Below, piece by piece: positions 1,719 through 20,000 of a stretch of 20,000 nt of DNA (position 1 is the first letter of the stretch; each line of letters opens with the position of its first letter). The notes beneath the pieces are model-generated. The model had not been told where the DNA came from, did no database searches, and saw nothing but the letters and a program-made list of their open reading frames with translations. The DNA comes from an uncultured virus (IMG/VR IMGVR_UViG_3300019378_000501) (taxonomy: Duplodnaviria; Heunggongvirae; Uroviricota; Caudoviricetes): IMG/VR virus record IMGVR_UViG_3300019378_000501. The stretch is one strand, 5' to 3'. The position numbers and the translations under genes are program-made.

Positions 1719-2582
1719 ATGGTTGAATTGACTGTCGAAATCAATGAAACCGAAACCCTTGAAATCAGTGTAAAAACGCTGCACTTTCTCGGTTTCACGG
1801 ATCACGCCAAAATGACAAATCGGGATGCAACCGATCAGCACCCCATTGAGGCAATCACCGGGCTTGCGGAAAAGCTGAAAACACAGGATGAAACTGCCAC
1901 CCGGCAGGGAGAAACGCTTGCACAACAGGGCGAAACTCTGACTGCGCACGGCGAGGCGATCACAAAACACGGTGAAACCCTGTCGAGCCACGCCGAAGCC
2001 CTCTCCCAACACAGAGAGGTTATTACTGGACAGGGAGAAATCCTTGCCCAACATGGCAAGGTTTTAACTGCCCATTCTGAGGCACTGACAGCCGTTCGTG
2101 AGGACGTTACTGCGCAGGGTGAAACCCTCTCCCAACACGGCGAAGCCCTTGTGCAGCAAAACGAGAAGGTCACTCAGCAGGGCGAAACACTCGCACAGCA
2201 CGGGGAAGCGCTTTCCCAGCAGGGCGAGGAAATCAAAAATCATGGTGAGACACTTTCTCAGCACGGAGAAACCTTGACCGCGAACGGGGAGGCAATCACT
2301 AAACATGGTGAAGCCCTGTCCAAGCACGAAGAAACTCTTGCGCAACACGGGGAGACGATTTCTCAGCATACAGAGGGTATCAATGCCCACGGTGAAACTC
2401 TCACCCAGCACGGGCAGACGCTTTCTCAGCACGGGGAAACCCTTACGCAGCATACAGAAAGCCTTAACGCCCACGGCGAAACCCTGACCGCACACGGAGA
2501 AGCTCTTGAAAAGCTCAGTGCTTTTTCCGATAAAAAAATCGCGTCCGTTTCGGACGTACAGGAGGTTTTAACAAATGCCTGA
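1719..2582 (+). CDS. Coiled-coil fibre protein with heptad repeats
   Basis: Phage fibre-type motif DH..MTNRD..DQHPIEAITGL followed by 30 uninterrupted 7-aa repeats. Confidence 0.7.
   Translation: MVELTVEINETETLEISVKTLHFLGFTDHAKMTNRDATDQHPIEAITGLAEKLKTQDETATRQGETLAQQGETLTAHGEAITKHGETLSSHAEALSQHREVITGQGEILAQHGKVLTAHSEALTAVREDVTAQGETLSQHGEALVQQNEKVTQQGETLAQHGEALSQQGEEIKNHGETLSQHGETLTANGEAITKHGEALSKHEETLAQHGETISQHTEGINAHGETLTQHGQTLSQHGETLTQHTESLNAHGETLTAHGEALEKLSAFSDKKIASVSDVQEVLTNA
1884..2513 (+). repeat. 30 x 21-nt degenerate coding tandem repeat, consensus (H/Q)GETL(S/T)(Q/A)
   Basis: Read directly from the translation, QDETATR through HGEALEK. Confidence 0.95.
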
Positions 2583-3876
2583 TATGAGCCAAGTCCTTGA
2601 CCTTGCCGGTGTTGCTGCAATCCGTGATTGGGTTACGGCAAATTTCCTCAAGAAAACCGACGCTGAACAGATGATGGCATCTAAGATCCAGCTTACGTTC
2701 GGCCCGGATTTCGAGGGCAAAACCTACACAATCACCGGCGGCGCGAACGAAACCTATACTGGCACAGTTCCCGCAACCCTGATCGTGACACAGACCATTA
2801 AGACCCTCAACACCGAATACGTTGTCACCTGCACCAATGAGGACGGTGTTTCCTATGAACGCTCCGTTACCATCGGCAGCTACTACGGCGTTTACCAGAG
2901 TGAGTTCGTTTCCTTCCGCGCTTATCTGGTTTGTACCGCAGACGCAGGCTGTACGGTTATCGCTACCAACGGCAGCAAGACCTACTCCGGCGTAGCCGAC
3001 AGCAACGGCGAAGTTACCCTGAATATCGGCGCAACCGGCACTTATTCCGTTACCGCCTCCATGGGCGGCTCCACTACGGAGGCCGTTACCGTGGAAGTCA
3101 CCGAAGCAGGCGCAACTTACACCTGCAAGCTGCCCTCCCTGTCTGGCCCTGAGATCGTTTCTTGGGCTGACGGTACTGACGAACAGATCGCAGCTATGGT
3201 CGCAGCTCTGGACGACGGTACGATCTCCATTGAGGATACCGGTTGGGCCGTGGGCGACGAGCGCGTTGTTACTCTGTCCGCTATGGCTGCAACCGGCGTT
3301 GGCGAATCCCACGCCGAACAGTCTGTAACTCTGGTGCTGATGGACAGCCAGCACTTCACGCTGACCGAAGCAACCGCTGGTGGCGACACCAAGGATCACT
3401 TTGTCGTTGGTTTGAAGAACTCTCTGAACGAGAAGGGCTACATGAACAGTTCCAACACCAACAGCGGCTCTTGGAGCGGCTGCGCTCGTCGTACATGGTG
3501 TAACGACGTATTCCGTGCGGCAATCCCTGAAACGCTCCGGGGTTGCTTCAAGCAGTTCAAGGTTCCTACCGCTACGACCTACAATGGCAGCTCTGTCACT
3601 GAAACCGATGATTACTTTGCCCTGTTTGCAGAAAAAGAAATCTTCGGTTCTTGCACCTACTCCAACTCTACGGAGGCTGCGGCCCTGTCTCAGATCGAGT
3701 GGTATGCTACTGCGGCGAACCGTAAAAAGACCGTCAACGGGTCTGCCGACCTCTGGTGGGAGCGTTCTCCTCATTCCAGCACCAGCAGTTACTTCTGTAT
3801 TGTCACCTCCGACGGCGCTGCCAATGTCGGCACCGCCAGCAGCACTATTGGCCTCGCGCCCTTCGGCTGTATCTAA
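2575..3876 (+). CDS. DGR target protein 1, probable receptor-binding/tail protein with C-terminal variable domain (DUF6273/C-type-lectin-like)
   Basis: The last 45 codons are VR1. Thr-rich beta-sandwich-like N-terminal half; C-terminal W..C.RRTWCN..F, F...EKEIFG, WWERSP and GLAPFGCI motifs. Confidence 0.9.
   Translation: MPDMSQVLDLAGVAAIRDWVTANFLKKTDAEQMMASKIQLTFGPDFEGKTYTITGGANETYTGTVPATLIVTQTIKTLNTEYVVTCTNEDGVSYERSVTIGSYYGVYQSEFVSFRAYLVCTADAGCTVIATNGSKTYSGVADSNGEVTLNIGATGTYSVTASMGGSTTEAVTVEVTEAGATYTCKLPSLSGPEIVSWADGTDEQIAAMVAALDDGTISIEDTGWAVGDERVVTLSAMAATGVGESHAEQSVTLVLMDSQHFTLTEATAGGDTKDHFVVGLKNSLNEKGYMNSSNTNSGSWSGCARRTWCNDVFRAAIPETLRGCFKQFKVPTATTYNGSSVTETDDYFALFAEKEIFGSCTYSNSTEAAALSQIEWYATAANRKKTVNGSADLWWERSPHSSTSSYFCIVTSDGAANVGTASSTIGLAPFGCI
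3739..3873 (+). repeat. DGR variable region VR1
   Basis: 135-bp ungapped match to 4426..4560 with 18 mismatches, all opposite TR adenines. Confidence 0.97.
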
Positions 3877-3887
3877 AATCTCAAAAT

Positions 3888-3908
3888 CCGCGCCCCTTGT
3901 GGGCGCGG
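3888..3908 (+). promoter_or_regulatory. DGR homing hairpin/cruciform downstream of VR1
   Basis: ccgcgccc-cttgt-gggcgcgg, an 8-bp GC stem 14 nt after the VR1 end. Absent after the TR. Confidence 0.85.
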
Positions 3909-3927: not shown

Positions 3928-4392
3928 ATGTCTGTTCCAACTTGGATGCGGTCAGAATCCAAAACAAAGTTTCTTTGGAGGCTTTACCGGCTTAATATCC
4001 GCATAGGTGAAATCGTTGCAAACCACCCGACAAAGTATCGGGCGAATTACGGCGACAGTCTGATTACCACGGCTCTTGACGCGCTGACACACGCGCAGGT
4101 GGGCAACGGTATTTATATGCACGTCGCCATTTCGGAATCCGAATATCAGCTCCGGCGCAGGCATCTTCGCGAAGCGAAAGGCTACGTCGAAGCGGTGGCT
4201 ACAACAGCTTACATCTATTTGGAGCTGACCGCGAAAGCGGACGGCGTAAAGAAGGAAAAGATACTGAAACAGGAGGAAGAAATCGGCCTTGAGTGCGCCG
4301 AAATCTCCCGAATGATTAAGGGTGTTTTAGACAGTGACCGACGGATCTACAACGCCCGGTATCGCGGCCAACAGCCTACCTTAACTGAATAA
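3928..4392 (+). CDS. avd: DGR accessory variability determinant (Avd-like four-helix bundle)
   Basis: 154-aa basic, helical protein between the target and the TR; AAGGAG RBS. Called mainly from position and size. Confidence 0.8.
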   Translation: MSVPTWMRSESKTKFLWRLYRLNIRIGEIVANHPTKYRANYGDSLITTALDALTHAQVGNGIYMHVAISESEYQLRRRHLREAKGYVEAVATTAYIYLELTAKADGVKKEKILKQEEEIGLECAEISRMIKGVLDSDRRIYNARYRGQQPTLTE

Positions 4393-4425: not shown

Positions 4426-4560
4426 GGGTCTGCCAACAACTGGTGGGAGCGTTCTCCTAATTCCAGCAACAGCAATAACTTCTGTAATGTCAACTCCGAC
4501 GGCACTGCCAATAACAACAACGCCAGCAACACTAATGGCCTCGCGCCCTTCGGATGTATC
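4426..4560 (+). ncRNA. DGR template repeat (TR)
   Basis: Intergenic between avd and RT. Contains 14 AAC/AAT codons and 37 adenines, and aligns to both VR1 and VR2. Confidence 0.97.
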
Positions 4561-6333: not shown

Positions 6334-8385
6334 ATGAGCCTGACTGGAAAAACCAACGCGCAGAAGATCTGGAACTACCTGATCGCAAAGGGCCTGACCC
6401 CCGCCGGTGCCGCCGGTCTGATGGGCAACCTTTACGCCGAAAGTGGTTTCAAGGCAACCAATCTGCAAAACACCTACGAAAAGAAGCTGGGGCACACCGA
6501 CGCATCGTATACCAAAGCGGTAGACGATGGCTCTTACACCAACTTCGCAAAGGACGCTGCTGGCTACGGTCTGGCCCAGTGGACTTACCACACCCGGAAA
6601 GCCGCGCTGCTGGCTTTCGCTCAGGCTGCGGGTAAGTCTGTGGGCGATCTGGAAACCCAGCTCGACTTTCTTATCAAGGAGATGTCTGAGGGCTACAGCG
6701 GTTTGCTGAACACCCTCAAAACGACCACCTCCATTCAGACGGCATCCGACCTCGTGCTGACCCAGTTTGAGCGCCCCGCTGATATGGGTGACACCGTTAA
6801 GGCGAAACGCGCAGGATACGGGCAGGCCTACTACAACGAGTTCGCCGGATCTTCCGCTGCTGCGGAGGAGGAGCGCTACACGGAGGCACAGTTCGACATT
6901 ACCACCCCCATCAAGACTGCGGCCCAGCTCGCGGCAAAAGCAAGCCTTGTAGCCAAGAACTACAAGACCCTGTACGTCATGGGCTGTTTCGGCGCTCCCA
7001 TGAACGCCGCAAATAAAGCCCGGTACTGCGCAAACCACAGCTACAACAAGGCTGCGGATCGTACCGCCATGATTCAGGCAGCAAGCGCCGACACTTTCGG
7101 TTTTGATTGTGTTTGTCTTATCAAGGGCCTGCTGTGGGGTTGGAAGGGCGACACCAGCAAGACCTACGGCGGCGCGTCTTACGCGGCCAACGACGTTCCT
7201 GACATCGGCGCGGACAGCATGATTAAAGTCTGCTCTGATGTTTCCACCGACTTCTCCAATGTCGAGGTGGGCGAGGCGGTTTGGTGTGAGGGCCACATCG
7301 GTATCTACATCGGCAACGGTCTGGCCGTGGAATGTACTCCCCGCTGGAAGAACTGCGTTCAGATCACCGCCTGTAACTGTGACGTAACTGGGTACAACCG
7401 TCGGAACTGGACGAAGCACGGCAAGCTGCCCTACGTCACCTATGACGAAAACTCTACCGAAAAGGTAGAGGATACGAAGTCTGAGGATACGAAGTCTGAG
7501 GATGCGGCGGCTCCGAAAGAACTGAAAGTGGGCGACATTGTTACGTTCACCGGCACGAAGCACTACGCAAACTCCAACGCTGCGACCGGCCCCGCCTGCA
7601 AGCCCGGTAAAGCGAAGATCACTGCAATCAACGCAAAGGGCAAGCACCCCTACCACCTGATCCGTGTATCCGGCGGCGGCTCCACCGTATACGGATGGGT
7701 CGACACCAACGACATCGAAGAAGCAGCGCGGGTCGAAGCTACACAGCCGGAGGCCGCGACAAAGAAAACGAGCTGGGAGGTCGGCGATGAAGTGGACTTC
7801 ACCGGCACGATCCACTATGCGAGTTCCAATGCGACGCGCGGCGTATCCTGCAAACCCGGTAAAGCGAAAATTACCGCGATCTACGCCAAGGGTAAGCACC
7901 CCTATCACCTGATCCGTGTATCCGGCGGCGGCTCTACCGTATATGGATGGGTCGACGCTTCTACTTTCGGCGCGGACGAAGTGGAGGACGCTGCGGAGGA
8001 GCCTGACCCCGACGACTGGGACAGTATTAAATACTTCAAGAAATCCGAGTTCGCCTGTAAGTGCGGGCGATACTGTGACGGCTATCCCGCCGAGGTCGAT
8101 ATGACGATGGTGAAATACGCCGACGCGATCCGCGCGCGACTGGGCGTACCTGTGTCCGTCAACAGTGGTTTGCGCTGTAAACAGCACAACGCCAACGTGG
8201 GCGGCGTGTCCAACTCTCAGCACCTTTACGGCGGCGCTGCGGACTTGGGTTGCCCTGCCGGAAAGACCGTCGCTCAGATGGTTGCTGCGGCTGAGGCCGT
8301 CATGGGCAACACCGGCGGCATCGGTACTTATTCTTGGGGTATTCACATCGATTCCCGGAAAACCAAATCCCGTTGGAACGGATAA
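6334..8385 (+). CDS. Multidomain endolysin: phage-lysozyme-2-like, NlpC/P60-like, two SH3-like repeats, peptidase M15-like
   Basis: GNLYAESG/GYGLAQWT/FERP; FDCVCLIKG...GHIGIYIGNG; two KVGD.V...GWVD repeats; EFACKCG/SGLRC..HN/SQHLYG.AAD/IHID. Confidence 0.85.
   Translation: MSLTGKTNAQKIWNYLIAKGLTPAGAAGLMGNLYAESGFKATNLQNTYEKKLGHTDASYTKAVDDGSYTNFAKDAAGYGLAQWTYHTRKAALLAFAQAAGKSVGDLETQLDFLIKEMSEGYSGLLNTLKTTTSIQTASDLVLTQFERPADMGDTVKAKRAGYGQAYYNEFAGSSAAAEEERYTEAQFDITTPIKTAAQLAAKASLVAKNYKTLYVMGCFGAPMNAANKARYCANHSYNKAADRTAMIQAASADTFGFDCVCLIKGLLWGWKGDTSKTYGGASYAANDVPDIGADSMIKVCSDVSTDFSNVEVGEAVWCEGHIGIYIGNGLAVECTPRWKNCVQITACNCDVTGYNRRNWTKHGKLPYVTYDENSTEKVEDTKSEDTKSEDAAAPKELKVGDIVTFTGTKHYANSNAATGPACKPGKAKITAINAKGKHPYHLIRVSGGGSTVYGWVDTNDIEEAARVEATQPEAATKKTSWEVGDEVDFTGTIHYASSNATRGVSCKPGKAKITAIYAKGKHPYHLIRVSGGGSTVYGWVDASTFGADEVEDAAEEPDPDDWDSIKYFKKSEFACKCGRYCDGYPAEVDMTMVKYADAIRARLGVPVSVNSGLRCKQHNANVGGVSNSQHLYGGAADLGCPAGKTVAQMVAAAEAVMGNTGGIGTYSWGIHIDSRKTKSRWNG
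7522..7956 (+). repeat. Duplicated ~61-aa putative cell-wall-binding domain (7522..7704 and 7774..7956)
   Basis: 252-nt offset; the final 69 nt of each copy differ at only 4 synonymous C/T sites. Confidence 0.9.
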
Positions 8386-8438
8386 ACCATTCACTGTAAA
8401 TCGCGCCTGCGGGCGTAAATTTGAAAGGAGATATTATT

Positions 8439-8828
8439 ATGATCCCTGAAATCATCATCGAAACCGTCGTGCAGATCCTCGCCTGCCTGCTTGTCACCCT
8501 GATCGGCGTGCTGGGCGCTTGGCTGACCGCCAAGATCGGCAAAAAGGCAGAACTGACCAACATCGGTCTGGCTACCAATGAGGTTGTCAGTGCCGCGCAG
8601 CTCACCGTTCTTGAGTTGCAGCAGACCGTTGTTGAACAGTGGAAGGCTGCAAGTGCTGACGGCAAGCTGTCCGAAGATGAAATTAAAGAGTTGGGTGTTA
8701 TGCTGATTCAGAAAACTATGGAAAAGATGTCTGCATCTGCGAATAACCTGCTTGTCTCTGCGGGCGTGGACATCACCGCCATTATCAAGGGCGCGGGTGA
8801 GGCCATGATCCAGAGCATGAAGAAGTAA
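8439..8828 (+). CDS. Holin (LL-H-like)
   Basis: AAGGAG RBS; single N-terminal transmembrane helix; directly after the lysin. Confidence 0.7.
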   Translation: MIPEIIIETVVQILACLLVTLIGVLGAWLTAKIGKKAELTNIGLATNEVVSAAQLTVLELQQTVVEQWKAASADGKLSEDEIKELGVMLIQKTMEKMSASANNLLVSAGVDITAIIKGAGEAMIQSMKK

Positions 8829-8841
8829 TATCCGCACCATT

Positions 8842-8876
8842 GGGCGCACGGGCTTCGGCCTGTGCGCCCTTTTTTT
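8842..8876 (+). terminator. Rho-independent terminator of the late/lysis operon
   Basis: gggcgcacgggc-ttcg-gcctgtgcgccc followed by T7. Confidence 0.92.
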
Positions 8877-9185
8877 ATGCCCAAAATGTCACCACATGGT
8901 TGTCCACACCGCATTTTTAATCTGTTGCAAACTGTTGTTGTGTTGACAAACGCGAGAAACAGATTTTTAAGGTGGTGACGCGAGTGTTGCCCTAAAGTGA
9001 CGACAGAAAAAGCCTTGCGGTTCTTAGGTTTTTCTATATTTGTCAACACTTCAACACTTATTTCTAATTGACTTATAAAAAGTAGTATTTAGGCAGTATA
9101 CGCAACGCCTAAAACGCCTGAGCGCACACATCTGTACGCGCGTGCGCGAGTGTTGTTGCCCTGTAATTTTGGCTTGCATAAATCC

Positions 9186-9262
9186 AGTCAAATTTTTTTG
9201 ACAAAACTATTGACAAGTCAAAAGTCTTTTGCTAATATAATGATAGTCAAAAACATTTGACT
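9186..9262 (+). promoter_or_regulatory. Sigma-A-type promoter overlapped by three 18-bp palindromic operators (AGTCAAA-N4-TTTGACT)
   Basis: TTGACA 9210-9215, 17-nt spacer, TGn-TAATAT 9230-9238 (TATAAT also at 9236-9241). Operators at 9186-9203, 9216-9233 and 9245-9262. Confidence 0.8.
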
Positions 9263-9301
9263 GAAACGACAATCGAAAAACGACATACGGAGGAATTAAC
9301 C

Positions 9302-13013: not shown

Positions 13014-13496
13014 ATGCTTACCGAGATCACCGGCGACCTGTTGACGGTTCGCGCCGGAATTATCTGTCACCAAGTAAACTACTACGGTGTCATGGGTGGC
13101 GGTGTCGCCGCTGCCATTGCTGATAAGATTCTGTCAGCCGAACAATATGCCGCCTACTCCATGTACTGCAAGCAGGCTGGCCGTACAGCCTTAGGCAGCG
13201 TTCAGTTCTTAGGATGCGCCCCCGGTCTGGTCGTCGCCAATATGTTCTGTCAGGACGAAGCTCTTGCCCAGAGAGGCGGCAACCTTTGCATCACTGACTA
13301 CGACCTTATGTACCAATGTTTCAAGCGCGTGCGCAATATGGCACAGATCCAAAAGATGCGGGTTTACATCCCGCGCAATATTGGCTGCGGCATCGCCGGT
13401 GGTAACTGGGATACCGTGAAGCAGATCATGGAGGACGTTTTCGGGAAAGGCCCTGTGGACGCTTTCATCGTAGGGCGGGAGGTTGGAAATGGCTAA
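13014..13496 (+). CDS. Macrodomain protein (Poa1p/TARG1-like)
   Basis: GDLL...IICHQVN..GVMGGGVA and IGCGIAGGNW..V motifs. Confidence 0.85.
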   Translation: MLTEITGDLLTVRAGIICHQVNYYGVMGGGVAAAIADKILSAEQYAAYSMYCKQAGRTALGSVQFLGCAPGLVVANMFCQDEALAQRGGNLCITDYDLMYQCFKRVRNMAQIQKMRVYIPRNIGCGIAGGNWDTVKQIMEDVFGKGPVDAFIVGREVGNG

Positions 13497-13791
13497 AATC
13501 GTCGAATGTGTTTCCGGCATTGATGGTAACGGCTATCAGTATATGTTGGGTTGGCGAGCGCCACTGTGGTTGGATGCACACGGCCTGAGAAATGGGCCAG
13601 CATGGGCGCTCCGACTGCACCACGATAAGAACCGTTCCGAACTGGAAACCTTTATTTGGGTTGGTGGCACACCTCGCAACGGAAAAACTGTCGCGGTGTT
13701 CAAAGACGAAATCATTACCGAGGGCGAACTTCCGGCACTACTGAAAAAGCATAACATCCCGTTCGTGGAGGTCGAAGATGGCAAGGCGTAA
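13489..13791 (+). CDS. Hypothetical protein
   Basis: GGAGG RBS; 8-nt overlap with the macrodomain gene. Confidence 0.65.
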   Translation: MAKIVECVSGIDGNGYQYMLGWRAPLWLDAHGLRNGPAWALRLHHDKNRSELETFIWVGGTPRNGKTVAVFKDEIITEGELPALLKKHNIPFVEVEDGKA

Positions 13792-14131
13792 GAGCTACAC
13801 GAACGCGGATCAGATCCGCAGCATGACCGACGATCAGTTGGCAAAAGCACTTTTAGATGCGAACGATACCGGCGTTTCCATTCCTTTCTGTCAAGAGCTG
13901 CCGGAGTGTGAGGCGCTGTTGGACACCGGGATTATCCCGGATGAAAAGTGTCTACAGTGCGTCAAGGAGTGGCTGAAACGGCCTGCATTTACGAGGGGGG
14001 GGAGTATCGCATGGATAATAAACTGGGTAAGGGTGTTCGTTTTGAACGTATCCGTCGAATCACCGGCTATCTGGTCGGAACCTTGGATCGCTGGAATAAT
14101 GCCAAGAAAGCTGAGGAACGTGACCGTGTAA
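13778..14131 (+). CDS. Hypothetical Cys-containing phage protein; true stop probably 14018 if the G8 tract is G7
   Basis: TNADQIRSMTDDQLA...C...WL motif; reads through the G8 at 13995-14002. Confidence 0.6.
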   Translation: MARRKSYTNADQIRSMTDDQLAKALLDANDTGVSIPFCQELPECEALLDTGIIPDEKCLQCVKEWLKRPAFTRGGSIAWIINWVRVFVLNVSVESPAIWSEPWIAGIMPRKLRNVTV

Positions 14132-17626: not shown

Positions 17627-17863
17627 ATGTTCGCATCGAAAAGAAAGCTGAGAGAAGAAAACACCCGGCTCAAATACCGGGTGGCTGATCTGGAAGAACG
17701 GCTCTGCCCGTGTGAGAGCCACGCGTGGAAACACGTCGGCACTGACCTTGAGGGCGGCACAGGCAGGGGCGACGAACTGTCCATCTATAACTACAGATGT
17801 CGTCGTTGCGGTAAAATGCTGCGGTCGATCCAGCCTTTCTTGGATCGGGAGGTTTCAGAATGA
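17627..17863 (+). CDS. Small protein with coiled coil and Zn-binding motif
   Basis: LCPCESH.W...CRRCGK; AAGGAG RBS. Confidence 0.65.
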   Translation: MFASKRKLREENTRLKYRVADLEERLCPCESHAWKHVGTDLEGGTGRGDELSIYNYRCRRCGKMLRSIQPFLDREVSE

Positions 17864-18299
17864 ATACAGCAGTAATGTTCAGCAGTAAGACCGACGATTG
17901 GGCTACGCCGCAGGAGTTTTTCGACGGCTTGAACCGGGAGTTCGGTTTCACCCTCGATCCTTGCGCCGACGACCGCAATCACAAATGCGCGAAGTATTAC
18001 ACCCGCGCGCAGGACGGTCTTTCGCAGGACTGGGGGGGGAACGTGTTTTCTGTAACCCGCCGTATGGCAAAGAAATTGGAGACTGGGTTCGCAAGTCTCT
18101 GGAAGAAAGCGCGAAACCGAACACCCTCGTTGTTATGCTTATTCCGGCAAGAACCGACACAAAGTATTTTCACGAGTACATATACGGAAAAGCGGAGATC
18201 CGATTTATCCGTGGTCGTCTCAAATTCGGCGGGCAAAAGAACGCGGCCCCGTTCCCGTCGATGGTCGTGATCTTTGGGGCCGGGAGAGCTACACAATGA
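17860..18299 (+). pseudogene. Phage DNA N6-adenine methyltransferase (Dam-like), frameshifted at a G8 tract
   Basis: DDWATPQ..F...FTLDPCA..DGL.QDW in one frame and VFCNPPY...LIPARTDT..FH...RGRLKF...APFPS in the other. The frames switch at 18032-18039. Confidence 0.85.
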
Positions 18300-18557: not shown

Positions 18558-19337
18558 ATGTTTGAAGTAATCGAGAAAGCAACCGGCAAGCGCCTGAACG
18601 TCTACGCGGTAGACGGCGACCATTTTGTTGTCGGCACGGACGACGGCTTTGAGTTCCAGCCCATGGCCCTGTTCGCGCCTGTCACGGCCCTCAGCGGGGT
18701 CGAAGCGCCTACTAAGGTGCAGGATTGCCCCTGTACTGTTTCCGTCACTGAGAGCCGTTCTGCGGATCTGGACGCGGCCCTCACCGATCTTGCGTCCGGC
18801 AAGGTTCCTGTTGTGTTGGGCAACACCGTTTCCACTCGCCTGCTGGACGGTACGGAAGTGGATCTCGTCGTGACTGACTTCGATGAAAAGACGATCCGGC
18901 TTGAGAGCCGTGATTGCTTGGGGGTCAACACCTCTGCGAATGACCTCAAGGCGTATCTGGACAGAGTGTACGCGCTGCTGCCTGAGGCCCTGAAAAAGCG
19001 CATCGTGGAAGTTGAGCGCGTCCATCTGGACTATAAGGGTAAGAAGTTTACCGACCGCTGTAAACTGTTCGTGCCTGCGGCCTCTGAGGTATTTCCTCCT
19101 GACGATTGCTACGGTGACAAGGGCCTGTACGAGCAGATGGAGTGGTACAAGGACGTACATAACCGTATGCGGGCTGACAGCAAGCGGGGTGACAGTCATT
19201 GGTATTGGCTGAGTTCTCCTTATTCCAGCAGCAGCAATTTCTTCTGTATTGTCTACTCCGACGGCACTGCCGATTACATCAACGCCAGCATCACTTATGG
19301 CCTCGCGCCCTTCGGCTGTATCATTTCTAAGATCTGA
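18558..19337 (+). CDS. DGR target protein 2 (remote target, 259 aa) with C-terminal variable domain
   Basis: GGAGGT RBS before ATG 18558; contains VR2. The C-terminal domain is homologous to target 1 (LPEALK, LF....EVF, Q.EWY....NR, W..SP, GLAPFGCI). Confidence 0.92.
   Translation: MFEVIEKATGKRLNVYAVDGDHFVVGTDDGFEFQPMALFAPVTALSGVEAPTKVQDCPCTVSVTESRSADLDAALTDLASGKVPVVLGNTVSTRLLDGTEVDLVVTDFDEKTIRLESRDCLGVNTSANDLKAYLDRVYALLPEALKKRIVEVERVHLDYKGKKFTDRCKLFVPAASEVFPPDDCYGDKGLYEQMEWYKDVHNRMRADSKRGDSHWYWLSSPYSSSSNFFCIVYSDGTADYINASITYGLAPFGCIISKI
19213..19322 (+). repeat. DGR variable region VR2
   Basis: 110-bp ungapped match to TR 4451..4560 with 12 mismatches, all opposite TR adenines. Confidence 0.96.
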
Positions 19338-19342
19338 TAATC

Positions 19343-19361
19343 TGCGCCCCTTGTGGGCGCA
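19343..19361 (+). promoter_or_regulatory. DGR homing hairpin downstream of VR2
   Basis: tgcgccc-cttgt-gggcgca, with the same loop and core stem as the VR1 hairpin. Confidence 0.85.
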
Positions 19362-19737: not shown

Positions 19738-20000
19738 TGGTGGAGCCGAGGGGAATCGAACCCCTGTCCGAAGGCAACTTGACAAGACTTTCTCCGAGCG
19801 CAGTTTGTTATTTACATTCCCTCATCCCGACGGGAACAAACACCCTGCGGGACTTGGTAGCTTCATAATGCATGGTACACGCAAAGCTTTGTGTACGCAC
19901 GTTCTCTACTCAGATCACACCCGAGCCCGGCTCGTAGACCTTCCGGGGCGGATGGGCGCCTAATTAGGCAGCCAGAGCAACAGTTCTGTTGTCAGTTAAA
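19738..20000 (-). ncRNA. ssrA: tmRNA (5' end outside the window); tag peptide (A)DNRTVALAA*
   Basis: The reverse strand ends ...GACAGGGGTTCGATTCCCCTCGGCTCCACCA (T-arm, acceptor stem, CCA). The tag frame at 19993..19964 follows TAACT and ends ALAA-stop. Confidence 0.96.

Follow-up and report, generated by a model that had tools for sequence, protein, structure and literature searches.

A remote second target of a prophage diversity-generating retroelement, encoded outside the tail module

The retroelement and its repeats

The stretch of DNA examined here, referred to as the window (20,000 nucleotides (nt) of the uncultured virus record IMGVR_UViG_3300019378_000501), is a prophage in which a tail module is followed by a gene designated target 1, an open reading frame (ORF) resembling the accessory gene avd, a template repeat (TR), a reverse transcriptase (RT) gene and then a gene encoding a 683-amino acid (aa) protein. 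The RT, TR and target 1 belong to one retroelement of the diversity-generating type (DGR); the present analysis is concerned with a second gene, target 2, which is located 14.7 kb from the TR, outside the tail module and behind both a terminator-like and a promoter-like sequence. It is practically certain that the single DGR of the prophage has a true second target in the variable repeat carried by target 2, and that this target is active at present.

Exactly three copies of the repeat are present in the whole 30,488-nt virus record, namely the TR, a variable repeat in the last codons of target 1 (VR1) and a variable repeat within target 2 (VR2). A sequence-only reading of this DNA had proposed that one DGR serves two targets, and realignment of the repeats bears this out. 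VR2 aligns without gaps to TR positions 4451-4560 with 12 mismatches in 110 nt, the TR base being adenine at 12 of 12, and VR1 differs from the full-length TR at 18 of 135 nt, again with an adenine in the TR at 18 of 18. Adenines account for 37 of the 135 nt of the TR, and for 32 of the 110 nt matched by VR2; by a simple binomial calculation on the adenine fraction, the chance of every mismatch falling at an adenine is 3.7e-7 for VR2 and 7.6e-11 for VR1. Sequence identity around the VR2 alignment falls away at both flanks, indicating that the similarity ends abruptly 5' of position 19213 and that 110 of the 135 TR bases are used, as the same reading had maintained.

The substitution patterns show that VR2 was altered independently of VR1. 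Eight TR positions are altered in both repeats, and the bases differ at 5 of these; within the span of VR2, the TR base is retained by VR2 but altered in VR1 at seven positions (4475, 4493, 4504, 4514, 4516, 4520 and 4535), whereas four positions are altered in VR2 yet retained by VR1 (4478, 4492, 4510 and 4534). Because of these differing bases, and of the positions that are particular to one repeat or the other, VR2 is not a copy of VR1. Both repeats have a GC-rich 3' end in common, with C at TR position 4554 where the TR has A, and the same 17-nt hairpin core is present downstream of each. VR2 therefore has its own GC-rich end, resembling an initiation of mutagenic homing (IMH) site, and its own hairpin, in agreement with the earlier claim. 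Conversely, such an IMH-like end and downstream hairpin are absent from the TR, where the DNA on the 3' side has a predicted folding energy of just -1.0 kcal/mol, equivalent to no fold. For phage BPP-1, the IMH plus hairpin is described as sufficient to target a heterologous gene (PMC3240598).

The ORF immediately beyond the TR encodes a DGR-type RT. Its motifs include YMDD at aa 239 and LGSEISQ at aa 207, the latter conforming to [I/L]GxxxSQ, which we take to be a mark of DGR RTs. The basic 154-aa ORF that occupies the position of avd has no sequence-level match in Pfam, PHROG, NCBIfam or the PDB. When modelled with the aid of 11 positional homologues, it forms a bundle of four helices, with a predicted local distance difference test score (pLDDT) of 66.8, for which the weak Foldseek matches (E 0.07-0.8) include 2gsc, 2rld, the DGR ribonucleoprotein (RNP) chains 8ub7/8ub8 and Avd itself (4dwl); the ORF is accordingly treated as a candidate Avd. 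The start of target 1 overlaps the preceding gene, which encodes a 291-aa coiled-coil protein. Target 1 and target 2 share 33% identity by BLASTP (E=4e-18), with the similarity confined to aa 311-433 of the former and aa 135-255 of the latter, so that the N-terminus of target 2 is unrelated to target 1, as had also been claimed. The coordinates of all features are collected in Table 1.

Table 1. Features of the window, with the basis on which each was assigned
Feature	Coordinates	Strand	Basis
Target 1 gene, 433 aa, tail module	2575-3876	+	C-terminal Pfam DUF6273, E=2.6e-13; phrog_37900
VR1	3739-3873	+	Last codons of target 1 ORF 2575-3876; 135 nt against TR
Hairpin after VR1	3888-3908	+	Predicted DNA fold -12.3 kcal/mol; core as after VR2
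Candidate Avd-like accessory gene, 154 aa, isoelectric point (pI) 9.3	3928-4392	+	Position between target 1 and TR
TR	4426-4560	+	Adenine-directed comparison with both VRs; 135 nt
DGR reverse transcriptase, 368 aa	4682-5788	+	RVT_1, E=4.8e-13; phrog_1423, E=1.3e-77
Strong terminator-like hairpin and T-run	8842-8869	+	12-bp stem with 10 GC pairs, then TTTTTTT
Promoter-like site in inverted repeats	9185-9263	+	Site 9210-9238, 10/12 matches, TG extension; 18-nt inverted repeats
Target 2 gene, 259 aa	18558-19337	+	Pfam DUF6273, E=1.4e-7; AlphaFold2 model; 70 homologues
VR2	19213-19322	+	In target 2 gene; 110 nt against TR 4451-4560
Hairpin after VR2	19343-19361	+	Predicted DNA fold -9.6 kcal/mol
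tmRNA (transfer-messenger RNA) gene, 3' part (last 263 nt of window)	19738-20000	-	Rfam RF00023, 87.6 bits, E=4e-33

Variation at VR2 in nature

The effect of the DGR on target 2 in natural populations was examined by comparison of homologous sequences. Homologues of target 2 at E<=0.001 number 70, and the 90% cluster, with 12 members, was aligned with the copy in the window to give a set of 13 sequences. Half of the VR2 codons (18 of 36) are variable in this set, and all 18 hold a TR adenine; conversely, none of the 16 adenine-free codons varies, and 2 codons that bear an adenine are invariant. Nine of the sequences have an identical 218-aa N-terminus and yet carry 8 different VR peptides, and in these nine 324 of 324 residue cells can be reached from the TR of the window by adenine-only changes. 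The corresponding figure for all 13 sequences is 461 of 468, with the 7 exceptions residing in three more divergent members, the TR of which may differ from that of the window.

Comparison of the window with G000, a near-identical virus record, revealed 15 differences over 19,759 nt. Nine of these are at a junction described below, 4 are in VR2 and only 2 are elsewhere in the remaining 19.6 kb. The VR2 differences are at 19221, 19222, 19230 and 19231, which correspond to TR adenines 4459, 4460, 4468 and 4469, and VR1 and the TR are identical between the two records. Four faecal metagenome runs were additionally compared with the window as contigs, a form in which rare within-sample variants and depth are unreadable. 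In one of these, run X3, VR2 is also present as a second allele, which differs at 7 positions, each of them a TR adenine; since X3 may be the source sample and only contigs were compared, this allele is not independent and is regarded as supporting evidence only. The contigs of X3 and of a further run, X7, end at position 19220.

Adenine-specific diversification of VR2 is ongoing in natural populations. The sequence-only reading had held that an absence of such variation would mark VR2 as a relic, whereas the variation that was found is strong and adenine-specific. VR1 is also diversified in nature, with 6 distinct VR1 peptides among 7 cluster members, and the turnover of VR2 is, in this lineage, at least as fast as that of VR1 in the tail target. 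One natural VR1 variant (P0105) differs from the copy in the window (P0102) only in the two most 5' variable codons, aa 392-393, which could be the result either of a conversion over part of the length or of an event of its own. In a separate observation, high-depth contigs of all four runs have alternative letters within TR 4464-4506, at non-adenine positions as well as adenines, which suggests that other DGR phages with closely related TRs coexist in the same samples.

Target 2 homologues were detected at 35 loci by a profile scan of viral contigs, and a related RT is present in 16 of the 35 records; among the 16 records with a completeness of 90% or more, 13 have one. The VR2 sequences of these relatives were compared with their TRs by searching for adenine-only runs, an earlier comparison with forced 90-nt windows having given mixed mismatches. 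In each of the 16 RT-bearing records the 3' end of the homologue aligns to sequence beside the RT with adenine-only mismatches (10-19 mismatches over 59-116 nt), and VR1 is located 658-903 nt upstream of the TR. The VRs of the relatives are followed by a hairpin with a conserved loop and a covarying stem, the stems in G033 and G035 departing from the common form. A complete hairpin falls within 70 nt after VR2 in 13 of the 16 records, the 70 nt having ended before or inside the hairpin in the other 3, and within 70 nt after VR1 in 9 of the 16, the stretch having ended too early in the rest. In BPP-1, the structure of the hairpin stem matters whereas its sequence is variable, and the loop is sequence-dependent (PMC3240598); the hairpins of the relatives fit this rule. 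Eleven further loci are in metagenome-assembled genomes labelled as Oscillospiraceae, Candidatus Enterenecus, Acutalibacteraceae, Ruminococcaceae, Anaerovoracaceae, Hungatella and Acetatifactor.

The target 2 protein and its surroundings

The start codon assigned to target 2, at position 18558, agrees with the conserved MFEVIEK N-terminus of the homologues and has GGAGG 8 nt upstream. Residues 130-252 match Pfam DUF6273 (PF19789) with 32 bits, which is above the gathering threshold of 23.5. The AlphaFold2 model of the protein (pLDDT 85.3, predicted TM score (pTM) 0.70) comprises a five-stranded barrel (aa 1-41), a disordered linker (aa 44-63) and a C-type-lectin/DUF6273 domain (approximately aa 70-259), and the model and its VIA-align superpositions place VR2 at the C-terminus of the C-type-lectin fold. 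Foldseek matched the barrel to SH3 domains over approximately 36 residues; as modelled, the N-terminus of target 2 is an SH3-like barrel, with no recognisable fibre-attachment domain. In a protein-atlas search, aa 1-85 scored at best 0.77 and 0.76, values too low to be of use, and a Foldseek search of the PDB with the whole model returned nothing at E<=0.001. The best VIA-align match to aa 81-259 is 9qa6, the N-terminal DUF6273 domain of the Thomasclavelia ramosa IgA peptidase (Z 14.3, root-mean-square deviation (rmsd) 2.6 over 161 residues), and TvpA of Treponema denticola (2y3c), itself a DGR variable protein, matched with Z 8.6 over 129 residues, with many C-type-lectin domains at a Z of about 6; Mtd, the variable protein of BPP-1, is not among the 50 matches listed. 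Unlike target 2, 9qa6 and TvpA are cellular surface or secreted proteins, with approximately 11% identity, and their function is not transferable. No signal peptide or membrane segment is visible in the target 2 sequence, and its predicted pI is 4.9.

Gene context was examined at 17 loci, comprising the window, Roseburia phage Shimadzu and 15 related loci chosen for diversity, with five loci that share the ORF-size pattern of L011 left out. Flanks of 3-5 kb were scanned for ORFs of at least 55 aa with matches at E up to 1e-5, and a second scan took + strand ORFs of at least 80 aa and - strand ORFs of at least 150 aa at E up to 1e-8. Among the ORFs scanned in these flanks, none matched a head or tail PHROG at any of the 17 loci. 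Instead, the neighbours include genes for primase, exonuclease, DNA polymerase, single-stranded DNA-annealing protein, ParB-like proteins and methyltransferases, together with macro/ADP-ribosylglycohydrolase, Lar-like, PAPS-reductase-like and anti-repressor genes. The homologue is situated amid replication genes in some relatives, between exonuclease and DNA polymerase, whereas at 5 loci it is the last gene before a serine integrase encoded on the opposite strand just downstream. An endolysin gene is found 3.2 kb upstream of the homologue at one locus. Macro-domain homologues directly adjoin the target 2 homologue in L060 and L062.

In the window, the terminator-like hairpin closes the tail/lysis transcription unit, and the promoter-like site beyond it is the likely start of an early operon, as judged from its consensus. 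Operator-like repeats at 8930-9059 and 9185-9263 surround this site on the 3' side of the terminator. From the promoter to the prophage junction, every ORF that was taken as a gene is on the + strand and the genes are tightly packed, overlapping - strand ORFs having been outside the scan. The operon includes a primase gene (phrog_19458, E=3.5e-113) and genes for macro-domain/DarG-like, helix-turn-helix, DUF3846, Lar-like and Dam-like proteins, the Lar-like match (E=4.7e-5) being under the Pfam cutoff. Target 2, with which the sizeable genes of the operon end, begins 4 nt beyond the preceding ORF and is located approximately 400 bp from the junction; the best promoter-like site near it has 9 of 12 matches, with no comparably strong site found. 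The sequence-only reading had located target 2 at the end of an operator-controlled operon with Lar-like, macrodomain and methyltransferase genes, off the tail module, which is broadly right, with the operator and promoter part consisting of consensus matches only.

Several further observations concern the same genes. At its N-terminus, the macro-domain protein (13014-13496; phrog_335) weakly matches the DarG antitoxin, with an E of 8.9e-8 that is under the cutoff. The Dam-like ORF (17860-18270, 136 aa) matches the Dam family only over its first 60 or so residues (Pfam aa 9-61), and in Shimadzu a small ORF annotated as a DNA methyltransferase is immediately upstream of orf43, the homologue of target 2. 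At position 13994, which is inside ORF 13778-14131, contigs of X3 and X7 have additional G residues (2 and 1, respectively), so that the reading frame would shift. The 683-aa protein encoded beyond the RT (6334-8385, +) has Phage_lysozyme2 and Peptidase_M15 domains. Contigs from other samples omit 84-1141 nt within its gene, with joints at 6431-6553, 6791-7933, 7622-7894 and 7704-8613, indicating that the middle part of the gene varies between strains.

The prophage is siphovirus-like, and its host is a gut bacterium of the Oscillospiraceae type. ARAGORN detected no tmRNA in the window, because the gene is cut by the end of the window, whereas Rfam detected its 3' part. G000 diverges from the window at 19745 (19745-19759), which is taken to mark the attachment junction between prophage and host, and its upstream part holds ORFs of capsid to tape-measure size. 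No integrase is encoded inside the window; in relatives, the homologue of target 2 is closely followed by a serine integrase gene.

Proposed mechanism and possible role of target 2

By the mechanism proposed here, the TR is transcribed and the RT, probably together with the Avd-like protein, copies it into complementary DNA (cDNA) with random bases opposite adenines. The cDNA then replaces the adjacent VR1 or, in trans, VR2, each VR being recognised via its GC-rich 3' end and downstream hairpin. The upstream crossover at VR2 is bounded by the end of homology, so that part of the TR is left unused, and approximately 18 codons on the lectin-fold surface of target 2 are rewritten. As the mechanism of diversification, retrohoming in trans at an IMH plus hairpin has good support, and the locus illustrates cleanly, in nature, how a second gene is acted on in trans by a DGR. 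The BPP-1 DGR (Mtd, avd, TR, brt) resembles that of the window in its adenine-specific mutagenic retrohoming, in a VR at the C-terminus of a C-type-lectin fold, and in the GC-rich IMH-like end and downstream hairpin (PMC3240598). However, the one target of BPP-1 is an adjacent tail-fibre gene, the product of which is attached to the fibre as a trimer through a beta-prism and a beta-sandwich, and an Mtd-like protein is encoded in the tail module next to the DGR, whereas the second target of the window is remote, is in the early operon, and has only the 41-aa SH3-like barrel and the linker in front of its modelled lectin domain.

The sequence-only reading implied that a remote second target was new. 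This does not stand, since many phage-associated DGRs with one adjacent and one non-adjacent target in the same prophage were catalogued by Wu et al. (PMC5758913), and a homologue of target 2 itself has been published as a mutagenised target. The latter is orf43 of Roseburia phage Shimadzu (LR596903.1), the only match to target 2 in a tblastn search of a phage collection at E<=1e-5 (36.8% identity over aa 81-211, E=8e-17); a megablast search of the locus against the phage collection and E. coli genomes gave no match. VR2 of Shimadzu is in orf43, and mutagenesis of both VRs was shown by Cornuault et al., among virion reads as well as in all isolates from the mouse gut (bioRxiv 10.1101/575076). 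Like target 2, orf43 is small (209 aa as annotated) and is the second, non-adjacent target of one TR with VR1 in a tail gene; it is likewise among early genes, between methyltransferase genes and an Erf recombinase gene. Target 2 shares with it the two features that define an orf43-like class, i.e. homology outside the VR and an early or replication location. The match leaves the first 80 aa of target 2 uncovered, no relative of the SH3-like N-terminus being detected there, and the phages differ in that Shimadzu is a myovirus of a Lachnospiraceae host whereas the window is a siphovirus-like prophage at a tmRNA gene in an Oscillospiraceae-type host.

Comparable arrangements have been described elsewhere. 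Faecalibacterium phages Lelie and CP11 have one TR with a large and a small DUF6273 target (PMC11792537). In FP_Toutatis, a distance of 17,480 nt separates the TR from the second VR gene, a core gene that is found even where the DGR is absent; target 1 of this phage differs from that of the window in being Hoc-like and downstream of the RT (bioRxiv 10.1101/2024.10.15.618418). None of these three phages has a sequence match to target 2 at E<=1e-5 in the phage collection, and their targets are accordingly analogous or very distant, as opposed to members of the same family. Small DUF6273 proteins termed tgt2 are described by Baykov et al. (PMC10743442), and Roux et al. state that remote targets were undetectable by their survey (PMC8144416). 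The two-target layout is thus already published, and the present finding adds another example of it.

What the diversified protein binds is a less certain matter. Our tentative preference, at rather less than even confidence, is that target 2 is a soluble hypervariable binder as opposed to a tail-module receptor-binding protein, made from an early operon with replication and anti-restriction-type genes. Its ligand would most plausibly be a variable component of the host or of a competitor phage, encountered in the infected cell or at lysis, and the protein would serve as a counter-defence, takeover or receptor-masking factor. Points counted in favour of this are the gene context at 17 of 17 loci, separation from the late unit by terminator and promoter, the SH3-like N-terminus and the pI. 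Several considerations weigh against it. The promoter and terminator calls are consensus matches only, and promoter-like sites show no excess in the window (11 found against 9.0 expected in shuffles). The position of the gene is circumstantial as evidence for a role off the virion, and some phage receptor-binding genes are located outside tail modules. To our knowledge, the phage DGR targets whose function has been demonstrated are all receptor-binding proteins of the virion. Moreover, the two targets have homologous lectin domains and a common template, which fits a related class of ligand, and published comments on small DUF6273 targets favour receptor binding (bioRxiv 10.1101/2024.10.15.618418; PMC10743442).

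The principal alternative, which is possible and must be taken seriously, is that target 2 is associated with the virion, as an accessory protein for receptor binding or decoration that is encoded off the structural module and docks by its barrel to a tail or head protein, and that its diversification widens adsorption specificity alongside target 1. The fold and template are those of target 1, receptor binding is the function of Mtd of BPP-1 and of other phage targets, and a turnover of VR2 at least equal to that of VR1 is expected of a protein that faces variation in the host surface. The authors of the FP_Toutatis study suggest that the second target binds a receptor, and receptor binding is likewise proposed for small DUF6273 targets in the nd4/nd12 study (bioRxiv 10.1101/2024.10.15.618418; PMC10743442). 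However, at 17 of 17 loci the gene is on the early strand with early, replication or accessory genes around it, a strong terminator intervenes between it and the late unit, and the model shows neither a beta-prism nor a beta-sandwich for attachment as in Mtd. A slight lean towards the early-expressed binder acting off the virion follows from where the gene lies, how the operon is built and which domains the protein has, each of them circumstantial as evidence.

It is doubtful, although worth stating, that the small lectin-fold DGR targets of early operons in general (target 2, Shimadzu orf43 and analogues in unrelated lineages) constitute a class of hypervariable binders made by phages that would function away from the virion, either within the infected cell or at lysis, in counter-defence, takeover or receptor masking. 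If such a class were to exist, phage DGRs would serve a second arms race besides adsorption. Likewise, if target 2 were to function away from the virion, DGRs would be more than devices for altering host range, and surveys restricted to RT-adjacent targets would miss a whole class of targets. The family is suited to asking what the lectin-fold targets of early operons do, because it has a cultured homologue (Shimadzu, in Roseburia intestinalis), many variants on one backbone and a consistent context at 17 loci.

A less probable alternative to the early binder is that target 2 is an accessory gene expressed by the lysogen (a moron) at the prophage end, encoding a hypervariable cytoplasmic sensor or exclusion factor that helps the lysogen, for example against superinfecting phages. 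The short distance to the tmRNA junction, and the location of the homologue as the last gene before the integrase in 5 related phages, are typical of conversion genes, and intracellular DGR-diversified sensors are described in bacteria (PMC10907252). This explanation is rendered improbable by the lack of a detected promoter-like site of its own, by a start 4 nt after the upstream ORF in the direction of the early operon, by the location of the gene in the midst of replication genes in other relatives, and by the lack of a fused or adjacent effector domain.

Finally, the notion of VR2 as a relic without activity, or as a copy of VR1 made by recombination, in which diversification has ended, is rejected as extremely improbable on the strength of the adenine-only variants on one identical backbone, the comparison with G000, the second allele within one sample and the differing patterns of VR1 and VR2, although three near-complete records (93-99%) that carry the homologue, G009, G019 and G034 (L013, L023 and L038), have no detectable RT. 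These records indicate that targets can outlive their DGR, and the homologue ORF is intact in L013 and L038, the two of these loci that were checked.

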